Virus record (IMG/VR): IMGVR_UViG_2773857937_000001
Location: 2,960-66,959 of that record
DNA length: 64,000 nucleotides
Source: a virus
Reading direction: 5' to 3' (one strand)
Each line of letters begins with the position of its first letter. The stretch's first letter is position 1. Positions 15,141 through 38,403 of the stretch are shown piece by piece. Both the position numbers and the translations under genes were made by a program. Under the pieces are notes generated by a model. The model saw nothing but the letters and a program-made list of their open reading frames with translations, did not search any database and was not told the origin of the DNA.

Positions 15141-15157
15141 ATTGCTCTAATAATTTT
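15141..15157 (+). promoter_or_regulatory. C1 operator (ATTGCTCTAATAATTTT)
   Basis: 16 of 17 match to the consensus. Confidence 0.7.
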
Positions 15158-17794: not shown

Positions 17795-17811
17795 ATTGCT
17801 CTAATAATTTT
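17795..17811 (+). promoter_or_regulatory. C1 operator (ATTGCTCTAATAATTTT) heading the cre-ref intergenic cassette
   Basis: 16 of 17 match, 18 bp upstream of the 17829 ORF. Confidence 0.7.
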
Positions 17812-20712: not shown

Positions 20713-20717
20713 ATTTA

Positions 20718-20734
20718 ATTGCTCTAATATTTAT
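20718..20734 (+). promoter_or_regulatory. C1 operator (ATTGCTCTAATATTTAT), Op2-like, upstream of ref
   Basis: 14 of 17 match. Confidence 0.65.
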
Positions 20735-20788
20735 GTATAATTAGAACTTCGAAGGAACTGTCTACAACAACATTGCCAAACTCCTCCT

Positions 20789-20814
20789 GACGGTCTTCGG
20801 GCCGTCTTTTTTTT
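20789..20814 (+). terminator. hairpin GACGG-TCTTCGGG-CCGTC followed by T8 (intrinsic terminator/attenuator) between operator and ref
   Basis: Read directly. Confidence 0.55.
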
Positions 20815-20827
20815 GGGCGTGATTACA

Positions 20828-21385
20828 GTGAAATTGACAGAAGAACAGATTAAACGGCAAAGACAACGAGCCAATGAGGCATCGCGGAAGGCAATTGCCA
20901 GGCAACGAGAAAAATTGGCTGATCCCGTCTGGCGTGAAGAGCAGTACCGCAAGCGCCGAGAATCAGAAGCCAAAAGACGCGCGCGTAAACTCAACTCCCC
21001 TCCTTCCCCACCAGCGAAACCACGTAAGCCGATAAAATCACGTGGACTCAAAGGCCGTACGCCCAACGCCGAAGAGCGCCGTATTGCAAAAGCACTCGGC
21101 GCGCTACCGTGCATTGCATGCTACATGCACGGTGTGATCACAACGGAGATCTCCCTCCATCACATTGAAGGAAGAACCGCACCAGATTGCCACAAGAAAC
21201 AACTCCCTCTATGCAAGTGGCATCACCAGCACACAGCGCCGTTGGAAGTACGAAAGATTTATCCGTGGCTGGTGCCGGTACATGCAGATGGCAATGTAGG
21301 TGGTAAATCCGAATTTTCCCGCCTTAACAAGCCGGAAAGAGAACTGCTGGTGGATGCATATTCCCTGGCTGGTTTATTAGTCTAA
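20828..21385 (+). CDS. ref: Ref recombination enhancement function (HNH endonuclease)
   Basis: Strong similarity to recalled P1 Ref (IARQREKLADPVWRE...LPCIACYMHGVI...SLHHI.GRTAP.CHKKQLPLC.WHHQH.AP.EVR..YPWLVPVHADG). GTG start chosen by alignment with the P1 N-terminus. Confidence 0.8.
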   Translation: MKLTEEQIKRQRQRANEASRKAIARQREKLADPVWREEQYRKRRESEAKRRARKLNSPPSPPAKPRKPIKSRGLKGRTPNAEERRIAKALGALPCIACYMHGVITTEISLHHIEGRTAPDCHKKQLPLCKWHHQHTAPLEVRKIYPWLVPVHADGNVGGKSEFSRLNKPERELLVDAYSLAGLLV

Positions 21386-21411: not shown

Positions 21412-21645
21412 ATGGATATCAATAAGCAGCAACTACAGGTATTGCGCCGCATAGCCAATGGCGAGCAGGTCTTTCAGGAAAAAGATGGCTTCCGTTGGAG
21501 CGAAGACGCTGGCGGGCAAGTTTGTACGGCTCCCGTCAAAAAGCTGGTGGAGATGAAACTCGTGCGCATAGCAAAGGTTAAAGGCGGAACAATTCTTCGC
21601 TGTGCTGTTACACAAGAAGGTAGCAATTACCTGAAAAACAAATAA
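21412..21645 (+). CDS. hypothetical small protein (77 aa) at mat position
   Basis: The ORF immediately after ref. Confidence 0.4.
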   Translation: MDINKQQLQVLRRIANGEQVFQEKDGFRWSEDAGGQVCTAPVKKLVEMKLVRIAKVKGGTILRCAVTQEGSNYLKNK

Positions 21646-21661
21646 ATAACCATCTAACATA

Positions 21662-22501
21662 TTGATAAGGCGAACTATCATGAAGAATGCAAATACCCCA
21701 CCTGTACAGTTCACTACCTGGAGACATAAAGAAACTAATAACGAACTGATAGGTTATTTTTGCTCTGGAGATCCAAGCATCTTAAATGCCGTCCTGAGCT
21801 ATTTTGGACGCGGGGATTTACAGCATGCTTATCCTTCCGAAACATGGGTAATGCTCAATCCGAAAAATGGCGCGATGTATTTTTGTAACTCTGAAGAAAT
21901 TGAGAAAGACTATACCCCTGCAACCGATACCCAAATAACCCTTTCCCCTATAAAAGATTTTGAAAAATACAGTTCTTCTGATGAGGTGGTAGAGGCTCTG
22001 CAAATCCCTTTATTGGGCGGTATTCGCCGTTTCATTGGGCTAACCAATATTGATTTAACATTACGTTTGTCACCGCAAGATATGTATGTTTCCGTACAAA
22101 CGAATGTCATTAGAAAGAGTGAACCACCACAGATTGTAGCACTCCCTGGCGACTGGATAGTGAAGCATGCCGATGGCAGTTTTAGTGCATGCACACCTGA
22201 AATTTTTGAGGCCACTTATAAATTCATTGATATTGAGTCTGCTGATTTTTCTGATGCACTGATGTGGCTGAAAGAAGGAAAACGTGTTGCACGTAAAGGC
22301 TGGAATGCTGGCGGCCAGTTCTGCTGGATGGTCCCGGAAGGACAATACCCGGCGCGGATGGAAGCAATCAAGGGTTATTACCCTACTGATACCGTCCCCT
22401 ACGGAGCGTACTTTGCACTGAAAAATGCCCAGGATGTGGTAGTGCCGTGGGTTCCGTCAATTGGTGATCTTCTTGCAACTGACTGGATTGTTCTCGCATG
22501 A
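21662..22501 (+). CDS. two-domain protein: unknown N-terminal domain + C-terminal DUF2829 (Tad2-like) domain
   Basis: The C-terminal roughly 90 aa read ALMWLKEGKRVARKGWNAGGQFCWMVP...YFALKNAQDVVVPWVPSIGDLLATDWIVL. This matches the recalled DUF2829 pattern (..AL..GKKVARKGWNG...lvPWv.sq.DLLAeDW.iv). Confidence 0.5.
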   Translation: MIRRTIMKNANTPPVQFTTWRHKETNNELIGYFCSGDPSILNAVLSYFGRGDLQHAYPSETWVMLNPKNGAMYFCNSEEIEKDYTPATDTQITLSPIKDFEKYSSSDEVVEALQIPLLGGIRRFIGLTNIDLTLRLSPQDMYVSVQTNVIRKSEPPQIVALPGDWIVKHADGSFSACTPEIFEATYKFIDIESADFSDALMWLKEGKRVARKGWNAGGQFCWMVPEGQYPARMEAIKGYYPTDTVPYGAYFALKNAQDVVVPWVPSIGDLLATDWIVLA

Positions 22502-23178
22502 CACATGGCGAGCTTAATGATATAGCCCGCCGCTGGCTCCTGCGCGCCGAATCTGCGCGGGGGCCAGGTTGTAAGGTGGCTTTTAATGAAGTGGGCGCGG
22601 TAGGCGATACAGAGCGCGCTGACGCATGGGGTTATCGCTGGGGATGGCGCGGCGGTAGCGTGCTGGTGGAGGTTAAAGTATCCCGTTCTGACTTTTTACG
22701 GGATAAGCATAAGCCACACAGGAAAAGCGGCGGCATGGGAGATTACCGCTATTACATGTGTCCTGAAGGGATAATCAACATTAGTGACTTGCCGGACCGC
22801 TGGGGGCTTTTATGGGTTAACAAGCGGGGACACGTCAAACTGATGGCTGGTCATATCTGCTGTCTCGTGGGTAACAGTTGGGGTGGAAACCGTGATCTCG
22901 CCTTCTTCTGGCAGCACGAGACGGATATGGAAGTTGAGCGCGGTCTTCTGGCCTACATGGTGTCCCGCGTGGGTGATCCTGATGCACTCCTACAGGAACA
23001 GCGCGCCTATCTGCGTCTGAATAACCAGCAAGCAACAAAGATTAACGACCTGGAGAAACGGCGGCGTGAAGACTCTATGACGATATACCGGCTTCGCCGT
23101 CTCCTGTCCAAAAACAACATTGACGATCCCACCAACAAACGCTCACAAGACGATTCAATACTCCTCTTTGATCTGTAA
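22498..23178 (+). CDS. hypothetical protein, possible PD-(D/E)xK nuclease fold (226 aa)
   Basis: A GDTERADAWG...VLVEVKVSRSDF arrangement (D...E.K). This is weak. Confidence 0.35.
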   Translation: MTHGELNDIARRWLLRAESARGPGCKVAFNEVGAVGDTERADAWGYRWGWRGGSVLVEVKVSRSDFLRDKHKPHRKSGGMGDYRYYMCPEGIINISDLPDRWGLLWVNKRGHVKLMAGHICCLVGNSWGGNRDLAFFWQHETDMEVERGLLAYMVSRVGDPDALLQEQRAYLRLNNQQATKINDLEKRRREDSMTIYRLRRLLSKNNIDDPTNKRSQDDSILLFDL

Positions 23179-23222
23179 TAATCGCCCGCTGCGGCGGGCT
23201 TTTCATTTCATTAAAAAAATCG

Positions 23223-25743: not shown

Positions 25744-26496
25744 ATGGCAGGTTTTTTCGATGACATGTTTGAAGATGGCGAGAAATCGCCACATGTGACC
25801 GGTGATACGCTCCAGGACAGTAAAGCCGATATTACCGGTGACGACGATGAAGGACTGTTTCACGTCGATTTTGATGAGTCAGATGCAGAGGAAGAGGAAA
25901 ACGATGCTGAAATCGAAAGCAATGGTTTGGACGTTGGCAATTTTATTGATCCTTTGGAGAACGCTGACATTCCCAATCTGGATCACGGCCTGCTTAGTGA
26001 TTCTGGTGTGCGCCATCGTTATGAAGGTCATGCAGTTTTTAATAACCTTGTGCGGATGGACTGGCTCAAAGCCATTAAGTTAGATCCAGACTCATTTGAT
26101 GCAGTGTTATATCGCGCGGTCCCCCATAAGCAGGAAGATGTGCCGGAGACGGCTTCCGAAGTCATTGAGCCTAACCAGAAGGTCTATGACTACGAGGATC
26201 CTGAACTAATAACGGCTCTCGACTGCCCTGACGAAATGGACTCGTTCCGATCACTCTACGATGGCAGCGATAATACCGGTATAAGCGAAATGGCTCTCAT
26301 TTTGCGCCTGGCTGCGGTTAACGTGCCGGTGGGCTCTATGCTGGAATGGCTTGAGCAACAATCAGATGGCTCCAGCGTGCGGCGATTCTGGTACATACAT
26401 CGCATTTTTAACTACGGAACCGCAAAGGTCGGCAGCCTGTTTTATTGCGTGCCGTCCCGCGCATTTGAAGGGAATTTTGATGGCAACACTCATTAA
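25744..26496 (+). CDS. highly acidic protein (250 aa)
   Basis: The N-terminal 100 aa are more than 35 percent Asp/Glu ([26 protein letters not shown]). Confidence 0.45.
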
Positions 26497-27277
26497 CCAG
26501 GAATGGCTGCTTGCGATACTTCGTAAAAAGCAGTTAACGCCAACCGGAAAACAGGAATTCGCTCCCATTGAGTGCATTGATACTGCCTTCGCTGCGGCGC
26601 TGAATGATGCTTTCGAACCTCTTGTTGTCTCATCCACCAACCGAATGAATAAGTCGTTTGCTGCGTTCCTGAATCGCTCTCCGCGTGATCGCATTACTGT
26701 TGGTTCGTTCAACGATACGAAAGAATGGCTTGCATCATTTGAGGCGTCTCGCGCTGGCCGTAAAGACTCCCCTCGCCCGCCTGGAAAAGTAAACAAACTG
26801 GCTATGCCTCTGATCAACCTAGCCCGTTCCCCAGCCTTCTCCATCTATGAAGGTGAGCTAAGCCGGGATGTATTTGATGATGGTCAAATTACGGACGATA
26901 ACGACGAAATTTCCGCGCTGGTGGCCACTATTCCGTTTTCTCTGAATTACTCATTGTGGATCGCCAGTGATGAAAAAGAGTCGCTAGGGATGGTCGCGAG
27001 CGCACTTTCTTTCTGGCTTCGTTTATATGCCAGCCATGGGCAGGCTACCTTCACGGCCACCAGCATAATCAACGACGTGGAAATGCCAATAAACTGCGTC
27101 ATCGAGGGGCAAAAATCCATCGCATTCGTCCCGATCACCACTGGCACCGAAGAAGACAGGATCGTTGGTGTTGGACTCGATATGACGGTCGTAGCTGATA
27201 TACCGCTACTCACGTATGTCAAACAGGTAAATGCGCAAATAACGGTCAAAGCGAAGGTCCGGGAAGGATCGCGATAA
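26480..27277 (+). CDS. putative baseplate/tail protein (265 aa)
   Basis: Start moved to ATG 26480 (MATLINQEW), which overlaps the upstream stop. Confidence 0.45.
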
Positions 27278-27299
27278 AGGTCCAGGTCACTACAGGAAG

Positions 27300-28322
27300 T
27301 TGTTTATGGCTACTAAAACCACATCGGCCCCTGACACCGATTCTAAACGAACGCAGTTGTTCTTGCAGACCGTCAAAATTGGCGAGAATGAGATCCCGCG
27401 AGAAATGATTGTCGGGTGTGTGTATGTCGAGCCGGGTAAGCTGACCGGCCCGCAACTCATGTTAACTGTGCGGGATAGCACGGCCTATATCGTGAATAAG
27501 ATGGGGGTAAAATTTGGCACCATTTTGACCGTTTCCTTTGGAGATCCGGATGGTATAGGAGGGCTGCTATTTTCCGAGGAGTTTTTCGTACTCAAAGCAC
27601 CGCGTAAAGACGATACCGTAATGGTATATGCTTTTAGTAACCCTGTGCGGCTGCTGAAAGAACCGACCACCAGCCCGCAATACTTCGTAGATAAACAACC
27701 ATCCGCCGTTGTCGGGGCGCTGGCCCCGTCCCTGAAGGTAATTGCTGACTCCTTCAAGAAAACTGCAACCTACCACCTGAATGTCGGGGAGAAGCCTACG
27801 CAAGTGCTTCAGGATATGGGCCGGGATACTGGCTCAATGTGTTGGGTGTCGCGCGGCGCAATCAACTTCCGTAGTCTGGATAAGCTAGCCAATGCAGACG
27901 CTACACTAACGTATGAGTCCGGCAACCCGAACACAAAAGGTTTAACGATCACTCAGTTCAATATCCTGAACGCCGATTACGAATATCAGCGCCGCCATAA
28001 TTACCGAATGGCCAGCTATGACATGAAAAAGGGTGTTGTGTACTCAGGAAGCAAAGACGCGCCGATAAAATTCACCAGTAACCCAGATCCGACGGCACTG
28101 GCCAACTACAACAAATTTATCATGCCTCGATTCGACATGCTGGTGGAGGGAAACACACTATTAACTCCTGGTGCTGTGATCAAGGTGCTGGTTCACAGCA
28201 TGACGCAGGACGGCGGGCTGGATGAGTCTGTCCCCGGCAAAATGGTGGTTGTTTCGGCTACCCATTTTGAGGATCGCTTTCGTTACATCACGCGCGCGCA
28301 ATTGGGAGTGGTCAATGGCTAG
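27300..28322 (+). CDS. putative baseplate/tail protein (340 aa)
   Basis: ORF in the late operon. Confidence 0.45.
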
Positions 28323-34904: not shown

Positions 34905-37495
34905 TACGCTAACACTCCTATAATGTCAGTTACGGTTTCTCGTGTATCACCTGCACATGAGATAGAGCGACGTGCGCGAAGCGACAACACCTTGAATCCC
35001 AGGCTTTTATACAGTTCGTTAATTGCTGGCGCGCCGCTGTTCGTAACTACAACACTGGCACCGCGCTGGTGGGCGGATTTCAGCGTCTGCGCCAGACAAG
35101 CCTGATCCTCAAAACGGAATCGCTGTCCACTGTAGTTAGTGAAGCCAGATTTACCCGGCATCGGCTCATAGGGCGGATCACAGAAAACCACATCCCCCTC
35201 GCCCGCCAACGCTACTGTTTCTCTGTAGTCTGCAATAGCGAACGTATAGTGCCTCGCTAGGGTGGCGAAAGACTCCATTTCAGCGAGAGGGAAATAAGGC
35301 TGGCGATAACTTCCAAATCCCACGTTAAACTCCCCCTTCTGGTTGTAACGCATCAGGCCGTTGAAGCAGTGGCGGTTCAGATAGATAAACGTGGCTGCAC
35401 GCTCCAGCTGTGTCATTTCACGTTTATTAAAACGAGCTTTGATTTCGTCAAAATAGTCTGAATTGTTGCCTTCGCGAAACATCATGGCAGCCTTATCAAT
35501 GAGTGCGAATGGCTCGCGCTGCATGACCTGGTACGTCAGAATCAGATCGTCACAGGCGTCGCTTGCAATCACCTCAGAGAATCCGGCGTTAAGGAAAACA
35601 GAACCACCACCAGCAAAAGGTTCGATAAGGCGGCGGCCGCTAGGCAGATGCGCCAGCACATCGTCAATCACGCTATATTTGCCACCTGCCCACTTCAGAA
35701 ATGGCTTTGTACGTGCCGCCGGAGCATCAGAAACACAAATGGCTTTTACAATCCGCTCGCCAATCCAGCGCATAACCGGCACCGCCATGCTGTTTCCAAT
35801 AGCCTTATAACGTGGCCCATCGACCGCCAGAAAGTTAGCCTCTTCTTCTGGAATATCCGGGAAGTGCGATCGCAGATAAGCCAATTCATCGGCTATCAGC
35901 TTATTGCGCTTATTGACAGTGATCAGGGTGTGATTATCTGGAAAACCTTGAAGTCGTTCACACTCAACTGGAGTAAGGCGGCGAACGGCCATATTGCGGA
36001 AATCAACAATATTGCGTTCCTGTGCCCTTCCCCCGCCGTTTGGGGACGTTAATGCATAAGCGAGATCACCATTAAACTCTATGGTTCGCCCATCTTCACG
36101 CCCGCGCTCCTGAAATGCGAGTACAGCGGGATAACCTTGTCCTGGTTTTCCTCCACCAGCGGAAAGAGGGCCAGATATCTGACCGTCACCATTTTGGAAA
36201 CGAATTTCGGAGCGGTTATTCTCTGCGAAAGCAAAAGCAACACCATCGTGATCGGCTACGCTCACTGCAATTGCGGTAGGGTTTTGAGACATAAGAGATG
36301 GGGAGATATTCTCCGCCGATGCATACTGAGTTGCACTCATTCGTTCAGGAAACGCTATTACAGATAAATGTTCATGGCTTTCCTGCTCTCTGGCGCGCAG
36401 CGTACCCACAACATCACCCTTACTCCATGAGCCAATACCGGTGCTACTGTAAACAGCAAGATCTGTTGCATCCTTGTAATCACGAGCCTTTACGGTTGAC
36501 GCTGTGGCATCATCGGCATACTCACCAAAAGCGCACATGCGGAAAGTGCCCACAATACCAGCGCCGCGCTGAGCAAATATCTCCTGATTACTGGCTCCGA
36601 TGCCTCCTGTGTTATGAGACTGATTCAGGGTTGGGTGGGGATTCACCGGATTGTCCCAATGACTACCCACAACCTGCATATAACCTCCAGCGGCCATATC
36701 TACATCTTGCGACCATCCACCTGAATTAGCGCGAGCCTTAAGAGTTCCGGCAACTTCTTCCCCCGGACCTCTGCTCGGCGGAGAATCCCGGCGCACGCCT
36801 TCGAACTCAAAAAGAATTTTTGCGGGATCGAAACCCTTTCGAGCACTTGCGACAACAAACACACGCTTGCGTCGTTGTGCCACTCCGAAGTATTGGGCAT
36901 CAAGGACTCGCCAGGCCAATTTGCGCTGTCGTCCAACAAGAAAACCCGACTTTGGCCACTTTGGAATGTGCTTATTGGTCGTTTTGTCCCATCGCCAGAA
37001 TTTACTGTTTTTACCCTTTGCAGGTCGTTCACCAGGTTCGAATGGCTCATCTTCACCACCCAATCCGGCAAGGAAGCATCCAAAGGCATTGTCTTTGCTG
37101 CTGAGCACGCCGGGGACATTTTCCCAGACGATGATTGATTCTGGCTCACCGTGTTCGCGGCGTTTGTCGTCGATTGCATTGGCTAACTCTACGTATGAAA
37201 GGGTTAATTGGCCTCGTGTATCAGAAAGTCCATTTCTTAATCCAGCGACGCTAAACGCCTGGCATGGCGTGCCGCCGACTACAACATCTGGAGCCTTAAC
37301 ATTCCCGATACGGACAGCCCTGGCTATTTGAGTCATATCGCCAAGGTTAGATATTTCTGGCCAGCGGGCAGCCAGTACAGCGCAAGGAAACGGCTCTATT
37401 TCTGAAAACCATGCTGGACGCATGCCCAGCGGTTCCCAGGCAATACTTGCCGCCTCGATGCCACTGCAAACGGAACCATAAGAAAGGCCTGTCAT
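34904..37495 (-). CDS. dmt: Dmt bifunctional DNA methyltransferase (N-terminal C5-cytosine MTase + C-terminal Dam-like N6-adenine MTase)
   Basis: N-terminal half: motif I CSGIEAAS, motif IV GGTPCQAFSVAG, motif VI WENVPGV. C-terminal half: KWAGGK, PFAGGGSV and DPPY. Confidence 0.8.
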   Translation of the reverse strand: MTGLSYGSVCSGIEAASIAWEPLGMRPAWFSEIEPFPCAVLAARWPEISNLGDMTQIARAVRIGNVKAPDVVVGGTPCQAFSVAGLRNGLSDTRGQLTLSYVELANAIDDKRREHGEPESIIVWENVPGVLSSKDNAFGCFLAGLGGEDEPFEPGERPAKGKNSKFWRWDKTTNKHIPKWPKSGFLVGRQRKLAWRVLDAQYFGVAQRRKRVFVVASARKGFDPAKILFEFEGVRRDSPPSRGPGEEVAGTLKARANSGGWSQDVDMAAGGYMQVVGSHWDNPVNPHPTLNQSHNTGGIGASNQEIFAQRGAGIVGTFRMCAFGEYADDATASTVKARDYKDATDLAVYSSTGIGSWSKGDVVGTLRAREQESHEHLSVIAFPERMSATQYASAENISPSLMSQNPTAIAVSVADHDGVAFAFAENNRSEIRFQNGDGQISGPLSAGGGKPGQGYPAVLAFQERGREDGRTIEFNGDLAYALTSPNGGGRAQERNIVDFRNMAVRRLTPVECERLQGFPDNHTLITVNKRNKLIADELAYLRSHFPDIPEEEANFLAVDGPRYKAIGNSMAVPVMRWIGERIVKAICVSDAPAARTKPFLKWAGGKYSVIDDVLAHLPSGRRLIEPFAGGGSVFLNAGFSEVIASDACDDLILTYQVMQREPFALIDKAAMMFREGNNSDYFDEIKARFNKREMTQLERAATFIYLNRHCFNGLMRYNQKGEFNVGFGSYRQPYFPLAEMESFATLARHYTFAIADYRETVALAGEGDVVFCDPPYEPMPGKSGFTNYSGQRFRFEDQACLAQTLKSAHQRGASVVVTNSGAPAINELYKSLGFKVLSLRARRSISCAGDTRETVTDIIGVLA

Positions 37496-38403
37496 CAGCG
37501 TTTAGCCTCTCCACCAAGTCCAGCCACCAGCGCATCAACCAGGCATGACAGTTCCTTAGTCAAAAGGAGGAAATCGGCATCATAGCGTTGCGCCACGTCT
37601 TCACGGTCGATGTCATCATTTTGATCAATAAGCTCGTCGGCAAACTTCAACCCGGTTAGGCAAAAGTTATCATCGAGGGTGAAGTTAACTCGGTTTTCCC
37701 AGCCAAGCGCCAGCTTAGTGACCAGCTTCCCGGCTTCCAGGTGGGTAGCAATTTCATCGCTAACCAGATCCTGTTTTTTCAGTCGTGCAATACCGCCGTC
37801 TTCGAGTAACGCTTTCAGTTCGGCGGAATCACCCATTAAGAAACCACAAGGCACCTGACCGCTGCGTACCCATTCAGTCAGCGTTATCTCAATAGGTGTT
37901 TCGATTGTTAAAGGCACTACAGGAAGTGAGCCAAGAGATTTGCGGATCAGCGCCAACATATCTTCGGCCTGGCGTGCACCGGCATTGATATAAATTCGTT
38001 TCGTCGAGCCGTCGTAAATGGCCTGAGTCGTGGAGTATTTGGAAAAAGCGCGAGGTAGAAGCGAATGCAAAACCTCATCCTTCAGTGAATCCTTTTCTGT
38101 CTTCTTCAGCTTCCTGCCCTGATCTTGCTCCAGTTTCTCAATTTTTTTCGCTAACTCACGCTGGATCACCGGCGGCGGCAGAATTTTAGTTTCTCGCTTA
38201 GCTTCAACGAGGATGAAACCATTTCCATGCATCGCTGCGGCTTCATAGTTTTCACCATATGGAGAAACAAACCCAAACTTTGCCATGTCCTGGCTTCCAC
38301 ACGGTGTAAACAGGATTTGCTTCGATTTGTCTTCAAGTTCGATGAGATTTTCAACATCGCGGGAAAGTGAATAGACGGAGAGTTTCTTCCAGTGTTTAAA
38401 CAT
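37495..38403 (-). CDS. hrdC: RdgC-like recombination-associated protein (HrdC)
   Basis: Near-colinear similarity to recalled E. coli RdgC ([12 protein letters not shown]...[22 protein letters not shown]...[12 protein letters not shown]...LGGEA.R). Start at the [11 protein letters not shown] Met, giving 303 aa. Confidence 0.8.

Follow-up and report, generated by a model that had tools for sequence, protein, structure and literature searches.

A Tad2-domain protein with a two-module N-terminal extension in the ref-mat interval of a P1-like phage-plasmid

Sponge proteins are one of the main means of escape from signalling immunity (Thoeris, CBASS and Pycsar) for phages and phage-plasmids, and among clinically important Enterobacteriaceae, P1-like phage-plasmids are in circulation. 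In the present study, we analysed a stretch of 64,000 nucleotides (positions 2,960 to 66,959 of the IMG/VR virus record IMGVR_UViG_2773857937_000001; hereafter the window), in which a gene between ref and mat encodes a DUF2829 (Tad2-like) domain at the C-terminal end of a considerably longer protein. An ordinary reading would make this gene one more Tad2 allele. The locus thus raises two questions: which immune signal, if any, the Tad2 domain would bind, and what the long N-terminal part contributes. The window belongs to a distant P1-like phage-plasmid, with approximately 75% nucleotide identity to P1 in the conserved genes, 77% to Cronobacter phage JK004, and 85-88% to Salmonella plasmids of 86-94 kb. 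The gene product is probably a three-module anti-defence protein of this element, composed of two N-terminal modules, here called A and B, and the Tad2 domain.

Reading frame and genomic context

The Tad2-domain gene lies on the plus strand at 21680..22501 and consists of 273 codons, beginning with ATG, and a stop codon. The maximal open reading frame on this strand runs without interruption from a TTG at 21662 to 22501, and its first ATG is at 21680; the TTG is the beginning of the maximal frame, and the real start is probably elsewhere. ATG 21680 is the called start on 11 other contigs (76-90 kb) with an identical protein, giving 273 aa. The Shine-Dalgarno-like sequence ahead of it is weak (AAGG). 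Both this weakness and a RefSeq annotation would be consistent with a later start: the orthologue in the Salmonella plasmid pCVMN1543 (NZ_CP009570.2, our locus L001; 4964-5785) was annotated by PGAP as a 216-aa DUF2829 protein (WP_000933936.1) beginning at the equivalent of Met58, in which case most of module A would be an untranslated leader. We regard this as improbable. The 273-codon frame is open in pCVMN1543 too, and for this reason the start of the 216-aa call is probably mis-called; other gene callers gave 273 aa. Furthermore, dN/dS was below 1 over the entire length of the gene. Against the 93% identical P0001 gene, it was 0.07 for codons 1-57, 0.11 for residues 1-92, 0.5 for residues 93-185 and, over the Tad2 domain, 0.05; against pCVMN1543 the values were 0.26, 0.32 and 0.16. 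Stated by module, dN/dS is 0.07-0.11 for A and 0.3-0.5 for B. A full-length orthologue of 287 aa (P0003; 52% identical), encoded on a 93-kb contig downstream of cre and ref, keeps the N-terminal extension at the same locus, with 31 of the 92 columns aligned to residues 1-92 invariant, and in the AF2 model described below these residues form a confident module. Judging from these comparisons of sequences, the N-terminal extension (about 185 aa) is translated within the same protein as the Tad2 domain. An internal start for a Tad2-only product was considered and rejected: close to where the domain begins, M195 has the sole in-frame ATG, and its use would cost half of helix alpha1.

The order of genes in the window is cre, other genes including NinX, ref, a 77-aa ORF, the Tad2 gene, an isaA-like gene, a terminator, and mat. 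The ref gene for a RecA-dependent nuclease (20813..21385, plus strand; PF16786, E 1.4e-42; phrog_2321, E 3e-84) is followed by the 77-aa ORF (21412..21645, plus strand; phrog_27888, E 7e-54, no function annotated), which every related contig also has, conserved ahead of the Tad2 gene. The isaA-like gene (22498..23178, plus strand; 226 aa; phrog_631, E 4e-62, and more weakly phrog_5429, 'DNA repair protein') begins within the stop codon of the Tad2 gene (ATGA). The same pair occurs on the related contigs, the D6 orthologue is annotated as P1 isaA-like, and the overlap suggests that the two genes are probably translationally coupled. A strong, intrinsic terminator-like hairpin (23184..23199, plus strand; GCCCGC-TGCG-GCGGGC followed by a T-run) ends the presumed transcription unit, of which ref is the first gene, and stands just ahead of mat (23260/23395-24033), whose product shares 72% identity with P1 Mat. 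Since mat comes directly after ref in P1, with nothing between them, the 77-aa ORF, the Tad2 gene and the isaA-like gene represent an inserted three-gene cassette. The isaA-like protein has a D...EVK motif, which suggests a PD-(D/E)xK nuclease; the label 'adenylosuccinate synthase' on the equivalent gene in some plasmid records is apparently spurious. On five related loci (L005, L008-L010 and L001), a HigB/HigA toxin-antitoxin pair is present between the isaA-like gene and mat, whereas the window is without it; thus, the ref-mat interval is a variable hotspot of accessory genes. The sequence-only reading placed the gene at the boundary between a block in P1 orientation and an inverted block. 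This was roughly right, although ref and mat, which flank the gene, are both in P1 order, and inverted synteny becomes detectable only at about 25.9 kb. The cre-ref-mat part keeps the P1 order, and window positions from approximately 25891 to 38000 correspond in the opposite orientation to P1 65.9-76.7 kb (the dmt, ban, gene 6 and dbn region), which points to a large rearrangement, compared with P1, immediately downstream of mat.

Upstream of ref, the sequence at 20713..20741 (plus strand) is a putative promoter for the ref operon under C1 repression, with an operator-like sequence ATTGCTCTAATATTTAT at 20718-20734 and TATAAT at 20736-20741, 1 nt later. The layout matches that of the annotated Oref/P2ref of P1, where the operator (1962-1978) and the -10 element (1980-1985) lie approximately 100 nt upstream of ref. 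In the whole window there are 10 matches to the C1 operator (ATTGCTCTAATAAATTT, up to 3 mismatches) where 0.3 are expected; they range from 9987 to 52510 and include 15141-15157, 17795-17811 and 34237-34253. This excess implies that P1-type C1 immunity is apparently in use, despite the nucleotide identity of only about 75%. The Tad2 gene is probably co-transcribed with ref under the control of C1, and such ref-linked transcription would turn the gene on when repression is lifted. A second strong, terminator-like hairpin (20789-20806; GACGGTC-TTCG-GGCCGTC followed by T8) is located between the operator-promoter region and the start of ref, and could be the terminator of an upstream operon or an attenuator of the ref cassette.

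The Tad2 domain and its candidate ligands

The assignment of the C-terminal part to DUF2829, first made from the letters of the sequence, was firmly borne out by profile, sequence and predicted fold. The domain comprises residues 186-273 (22235..22498, plus strand). Residues 189-271 match PF11195 (Tad2-like) at E 6.8e-21 and 75 bits (gathering score, 25), covering positions 2-72 of the 73 of the profile, and the same stretch matches the solved chains of ModTad2 (9eib, E 1.2e-18) and Tad2 (8v3e, E 1.6e-18), i.e., Tad2 structures at E of about 1e-18, and more weakly those of AcrIIA7/HgmTad2, SptTad2 and SPO1 gp34.65. The motif quoted in the sequence-only reading is present as RVARKGWN...VPWVPSIGDLLATDW; its first residue is R, so that KVARKGWN has to be corrected to RVARKGWN.

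Across an alignment of 48 sequences, nearly all positions for binding of the signal are either invariant or conserved to 90% or more. Among the residues of HgmTad2 in contact with gcADPR (W21, N22, G23, W87, L88, S90, T92 and D93), five are conserved as W208, N209, W257, S260 and D263, and three are substituted (G23 to A210, L88 to V258, and T92 to G262; MoTad2 has S at the position of T92). The domain is a bona fide member of the Tad2 family, and it is most likely a tetrameric sponge of a TIR-derived signal, for which His-ADPR of type II Thoeris is the best-supported target. The closest tested relative is Tad2_68, a stand-alone metagenomic protein of 87 aa studied by Hadary et al. (bioRxiv 10.1101/2025.08.24.671296), which aligns without a gap to residues 188-272 (66% identity over 85 residues) and shares the GWN and W-x-P-S-I-G-D motifs, while the window protein has 185 additional N-terminal residues. 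According to Table S2 of that study, Tad2_68 inhibits type II Thoeris (y/y/y for transformed, culture collapse and plaque validation) and does not inhibit type IV Thoeris, either of the CBASS systems or Bacillus Pycsar; the entry for type I Thoeris, like the one for E. coli Pycsar, appears to read 'not transformed'. Our decoding of the columns of this table was checked against the rows of MoTad2 and Tad2_71 and the text of the paper. MoTad2 (ModTad2) from a Myroides odoratus prophage, a single-domain protein of 88 aa (8V3E; 9EIB with His-ADPR), sequesters His-ADPR and is 41-44% identical to the window domain. SPO1 Tad2 (gp34.65; 8SME) and HgmTad2/AcrIIA7 (8KBI and 9KZR) match less closely (E 1e-7 to 1e-11) but have the same family and fold, with the W-N loop that contacts gcADPR and the W..S..D motif in common; the largest N-terminal extension among their chains is approximately 45 aa, in the 158-aa chain of AcrIIA7. 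The sequence-only reading pointed out that this fold sponges the Thoeris signal gcADPR and other cyclic-nucleotide immune signals. The family to which the domain belongs agrees with a role in sponging, but among the characterised proteins its closest relatives speak for type II Thoeris with His-ADPR, not for gcADPR or the dinucleotides of CBASS.

A signal from outside Thoeris, either instead or in addition, is a rather unlikely alternative. It could be cUMP or cCMP of Pycsar, bound in a second pocket like that of MoTad2, or a cyclic dinucleotide of CBASS, bound as in HgmTad2. MoTad2 has a separate pocket at its A-C interface by which it inhibits Pycsar as well, and the insertion between beta2 and beta5 of the window domain aligns to that of MoTad2 with a single gap of 1 residue. 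Nevertheless, Tad2_68 inhibits neither Bacillus Pycsar nor either CBASS, as noted above. As for the cyclic dinucleotides, they are indeed bound by HgmTad2, whose pocket for them (insertion 32-72; R31, S47, F70 and N85) is not conserved in the window protein: R31 aligns to V218, and the beta2-beta5 insertion is short and MoTad2-like where that of HgmTad2 is much longer.

DUF2829 also occurs in AcrIIA7, and some of the phage homologs are annotated as 'anti-CRISPR protein', so that anti-CRISPR action, as first described for AcrIIA7, might be proposed in place of a signal sponge. We consider this very improbable, as binding of AcrIIA7 to Cas9 has never been demonstrated and AcrIIA7 itself (HgmTad2) sponges gcADPR and dinucleotides. 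Type II-A CRISPR is not known to be typical of Enterobacteriaceae.

In the preferred reading, a sponge of a TIR-made signal, the Tad2 domain would most likely form the usual homotetramer (predicted), and the immune signal would be sequestered in pockets at the interfaces of the protomers. Effectors of the Thoeris type would then stay inactive upon infection by the element or upon its induction. The most probable ligand would be His-ADPR of type II Thoeris, and other ADPR-derived signals of Thoeris may also be bound. Helix alpha1 is at the core of the tetramer, and the N-terminal load of 185 aa could change the assembly. The 18 Tad2 proteins that Hadary et al. screened (bioRxiv 10.1101/2025.08.24.671296) are all 60-158 aa long; compared with these characterised members, which are short and single-domain, the window protein has 273 aa and three modules. 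The short single-domain form is typical of characterised Tad2 and is not a requirement of the family, since published fusions are functional.

The N-terminal modules

The sequence-only reading described the N-terminal part as one unknown domain of 190 aa. A larger un-annotated region is indeed present (about 185 aa), but it consists of two modules. In an AF2 model of the N-terminal part alone (pLDDT 85, pTM 0.74), two units were observed, corresponding to module A (elements within residues 12-80) and module B (95-179). Neither module has a match in Pfam (E up to 10), NCBIfam or PADLOC, and phmmer and profile searches of PDB sequences gave noise alone, mostly nanobodies and one designed protein. 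When the N-terminal 187 residues were searched alone against a database of 5.8 billion proteins, only their own family was found.

Module A (residues 1 to about 88; 21680..21943, plus strand) is an orphan alpha/beta unit with a predicted bb-a-bb-a-b order of elements, and has no match in Pfam, PHROG or PDB sequences. When its profile was run against 1.84 billion representative proteins, the sole genuine matches were P0003 and P0002, a fragment of the same family; six further matches were rejected, being tandem-repeat proteins whose scores were inflated by summed weak matches. The idea that module A is a third copy of module B found no significant support: hhalign gave E 0.009 with the Tad2-fused set of B and 0.15 with the stand-alone set, and the alignment covers the last beta-beta-alpha element only. 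From its distribution, module A appears as a lineage-specific addition, and it could be a second, lineage-specific anti-defence module.

Module B (residues about 93-183; 21956..22228, plus strand), predicted to fold as a small barrel of the SH3/Tudor type that carries a helical insert, is a divergent member of a family of stand-alone phage proteins. Matches of phrog 419, 1810, 4502, 4159 and 6363 are to its C-terminal third, and an HMM made from 100 stand-alone proteins matches the window protein at E 4.5e-10 with residues 151-181 alone aligned. When an alignment of the window-type B was compared with the stand-alone one by hhalign, the two matched end to end (columns 4-90 versus 2-85; 98% probability, E 1.4e-13). 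Profile comparison thus shows module B to be homologous to a very large family of small stand-alone phage proteins. This family has at least 7,998 clusters at E 0.001 (of the 8,000 candidates scored); its best matches are 82-110 aa long without a Pfam domain, and the typical unit is approximately 88 aa. The pattern KFRKKPVVIEA...TLEG...GDWII.G..GE.YPCKPDIF..TYE is strongly conserved, the canonical form being MKFRKKPVVIEA...TLEG...GDWIIRGVKGE.YPCKPDIF.ATYEP. The stand-alone proteins fall in phrog_419/1810/4502 (no function annotated), and the unit is also found at the N-terminus of a PHROG annotated as MazG; the family has no Pfam entry and no solved structure. PGDYG (PF14083, gathering score 27 bits) does not match the window protein, and matches relatives only below the threshold (12-18 bits), one of these being a B-Lockin protein; in BFVD, several structures named 'PGDYG protein' were among the matches, with weak E-values.

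Tal et al. (bioRxiv 10.1101/2025.07.12.664507) list homologs of Sequestin and Lockin in supplementary Tables S1 and S4, and among these are proteins that have module B at the N-terminus (MQYRKKPVVIEA...YPCKPDIF); PF21825 was confirmed in one such published B-Sequestin protein. The accessible text of that preprint makes no mention of B fusions to Sequestin or Lockin, and our search of the literature found no text describing module B. Module B is therefore fused to three unrelated, experimentally verified families of sponges, namely Tad2, Sequestin and Lockin. This is the same clue that led to Sequestin, which, in the same preprint, was discovered as being 'fused to a known sponge' in a survey limited to Pfam-defined partners; the lack of a Pfam entry would explain why the B family was overlooked. 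Tentatively, the B family, both as the fused copy and, above all, in its stand-alone form, may represent new and widespread anti-defence modules of phages, acting as a signal sponge or as a general partner of sponges. Two other identities for these modules were rejected. Neither module B nor the related module Y described below appears to be a relative of Acb4, as there is no PF13876 match and the fold of Acb4 is dsRBD-like, not SH3-like; nor is module B Lockin itself, since B-Lockin fusions are in the homolog table, yet the Lockin part differs in sequence.

The main alternative, which we hold with reserve, is that neither module A nor module B has its own ligand or target, and that the two serve as a scaffold or handle for the solubility, higher-order assembly or stability of an ordinary Tad2 sponge. 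The window copy of module B keeps the last motif (PGDWIVKHADGSFSACTPEIFEATYKF) and VVEA, whereas KFRKKP, the most conserved basic motif of the family, and TLEG are replaced. Because of this loss and because the constraint on B is the weakest of the modules, the window copy may have degenerated or may have a structural role only. On the other hand, B is mainly a stand-alone protein of approximately 88 aa with very strongly conserved motifs, which indicates an autonomous function, and it recurs on three unrelated sponge families; module A, for its part, is under strong purifying selection (dN/dS 0.07-0.11). Taking the Tad2 domain as the sponge of the protein, module B would most likely add a second anti-defence activity or aid assembly. 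Module B could represent another major anti-defence family, or could account for how sponge fusions work.

Comparison with known Tad2 proteins and fusions

We surveyed the architecture of 96 Tad2 proteins (the window protein and 95 relatives), and almost all of them have N- and/or C-terminal extensions. Module B is present in 28 of the 96, and in 45 there is a module, here called Y ('YKCHK...GGYLVAYEDGYLSYSP'), that hhalign identifies as a distant relative of B (E 6e-5); both occur together in 8. At least 19 have a Sequestin-like C-terminus, and a C-terminal Sequestin domain is found in P0004, P0006, P0008, P0047 and others. Proteins with B and Tad2 are also encoded by lytic phages of Klebsiella and Stenotrophomonas and by other phages, and the combination of A, B and Tad2 occurs in the window lineage only (P0001, the fragment P0002 and P0003). 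The commonest alleles among these homologs (P0018, P0033, P0038 and P0024; 220-225 aa) represent clusters of 140-453 members, several of them named from E. coli, and have module Y at the N-terminus (LPKYKCHK...GGYLVAYEDGYLSYSPEK.FEEGY; no Pfam match). We also observed fusions of dUTPase (PF00692) and Tad2 and one protein with a tail-fibre repeat (PF03406) and Tad2 (P0035, 241 aa; P0094, 304 aa; P0028, 306 aa). In phage D6, the dUTPase gene is directly upstream of the Tad2 gene, and because of this adjacency the dUTPase fusions may stem from loss of a stop codon.

Fusions of sponges are known from previous studies. Tal et al. (bioRxiv 10.1101/2025.07.12.664507) found frequent fusions of Tad2 with Acb4, as in Pasteurella phage Pm86, and with PF21825 (Sequestin), and showed that an Acb4-Tad2 fusion blocks both Thoeris and CBASS. 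Such proteins likewise combine Tad2 and other small phage modules in one polypeptide. Unlike these published fusions, the window protein is without Acb4 and Sequestin, and its partners are modules A and B: it has no profile match to Sequestin (PF21825, crAss001_48; a helical domain of approximately 60 aa), and neither a profile match to Acb4 (PF13876) nor its dsRBD-like alpha-beta-beta-beta-alpha fold.

The closest systems in terms of the host element are the Tad2 proteins of P1 and D6 relatives (D6 orf114, SJ46 J46_0048 and E. coli alleles such as P0018), whose Tad2 domain is 79-81% identical to that of the window protein, and which have other N-terminal modules, e.g., module Y; the D6 gene is located in the accessory region downstream of cre. 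In published work based on DefenseFinder, 'Tad2 AcrIIA7 (anti-Thoeris)' was assigned to 93% of the D6-like phage-plasmids and to 56% of the P1-like ones. Tad2 of P1-like phage-plasmids can be compared to beads on a string, a set of interchangeable modules in which Tad2 and Sequestin are proven sponges. Tad2 in P1- and D6-like elements and fusions of Tad2 with sponges have already been published, and an N-terminally extended Tad2 is the rule in these phage-plasmids; the architecture of A, B and Tad2 in one protein is new.
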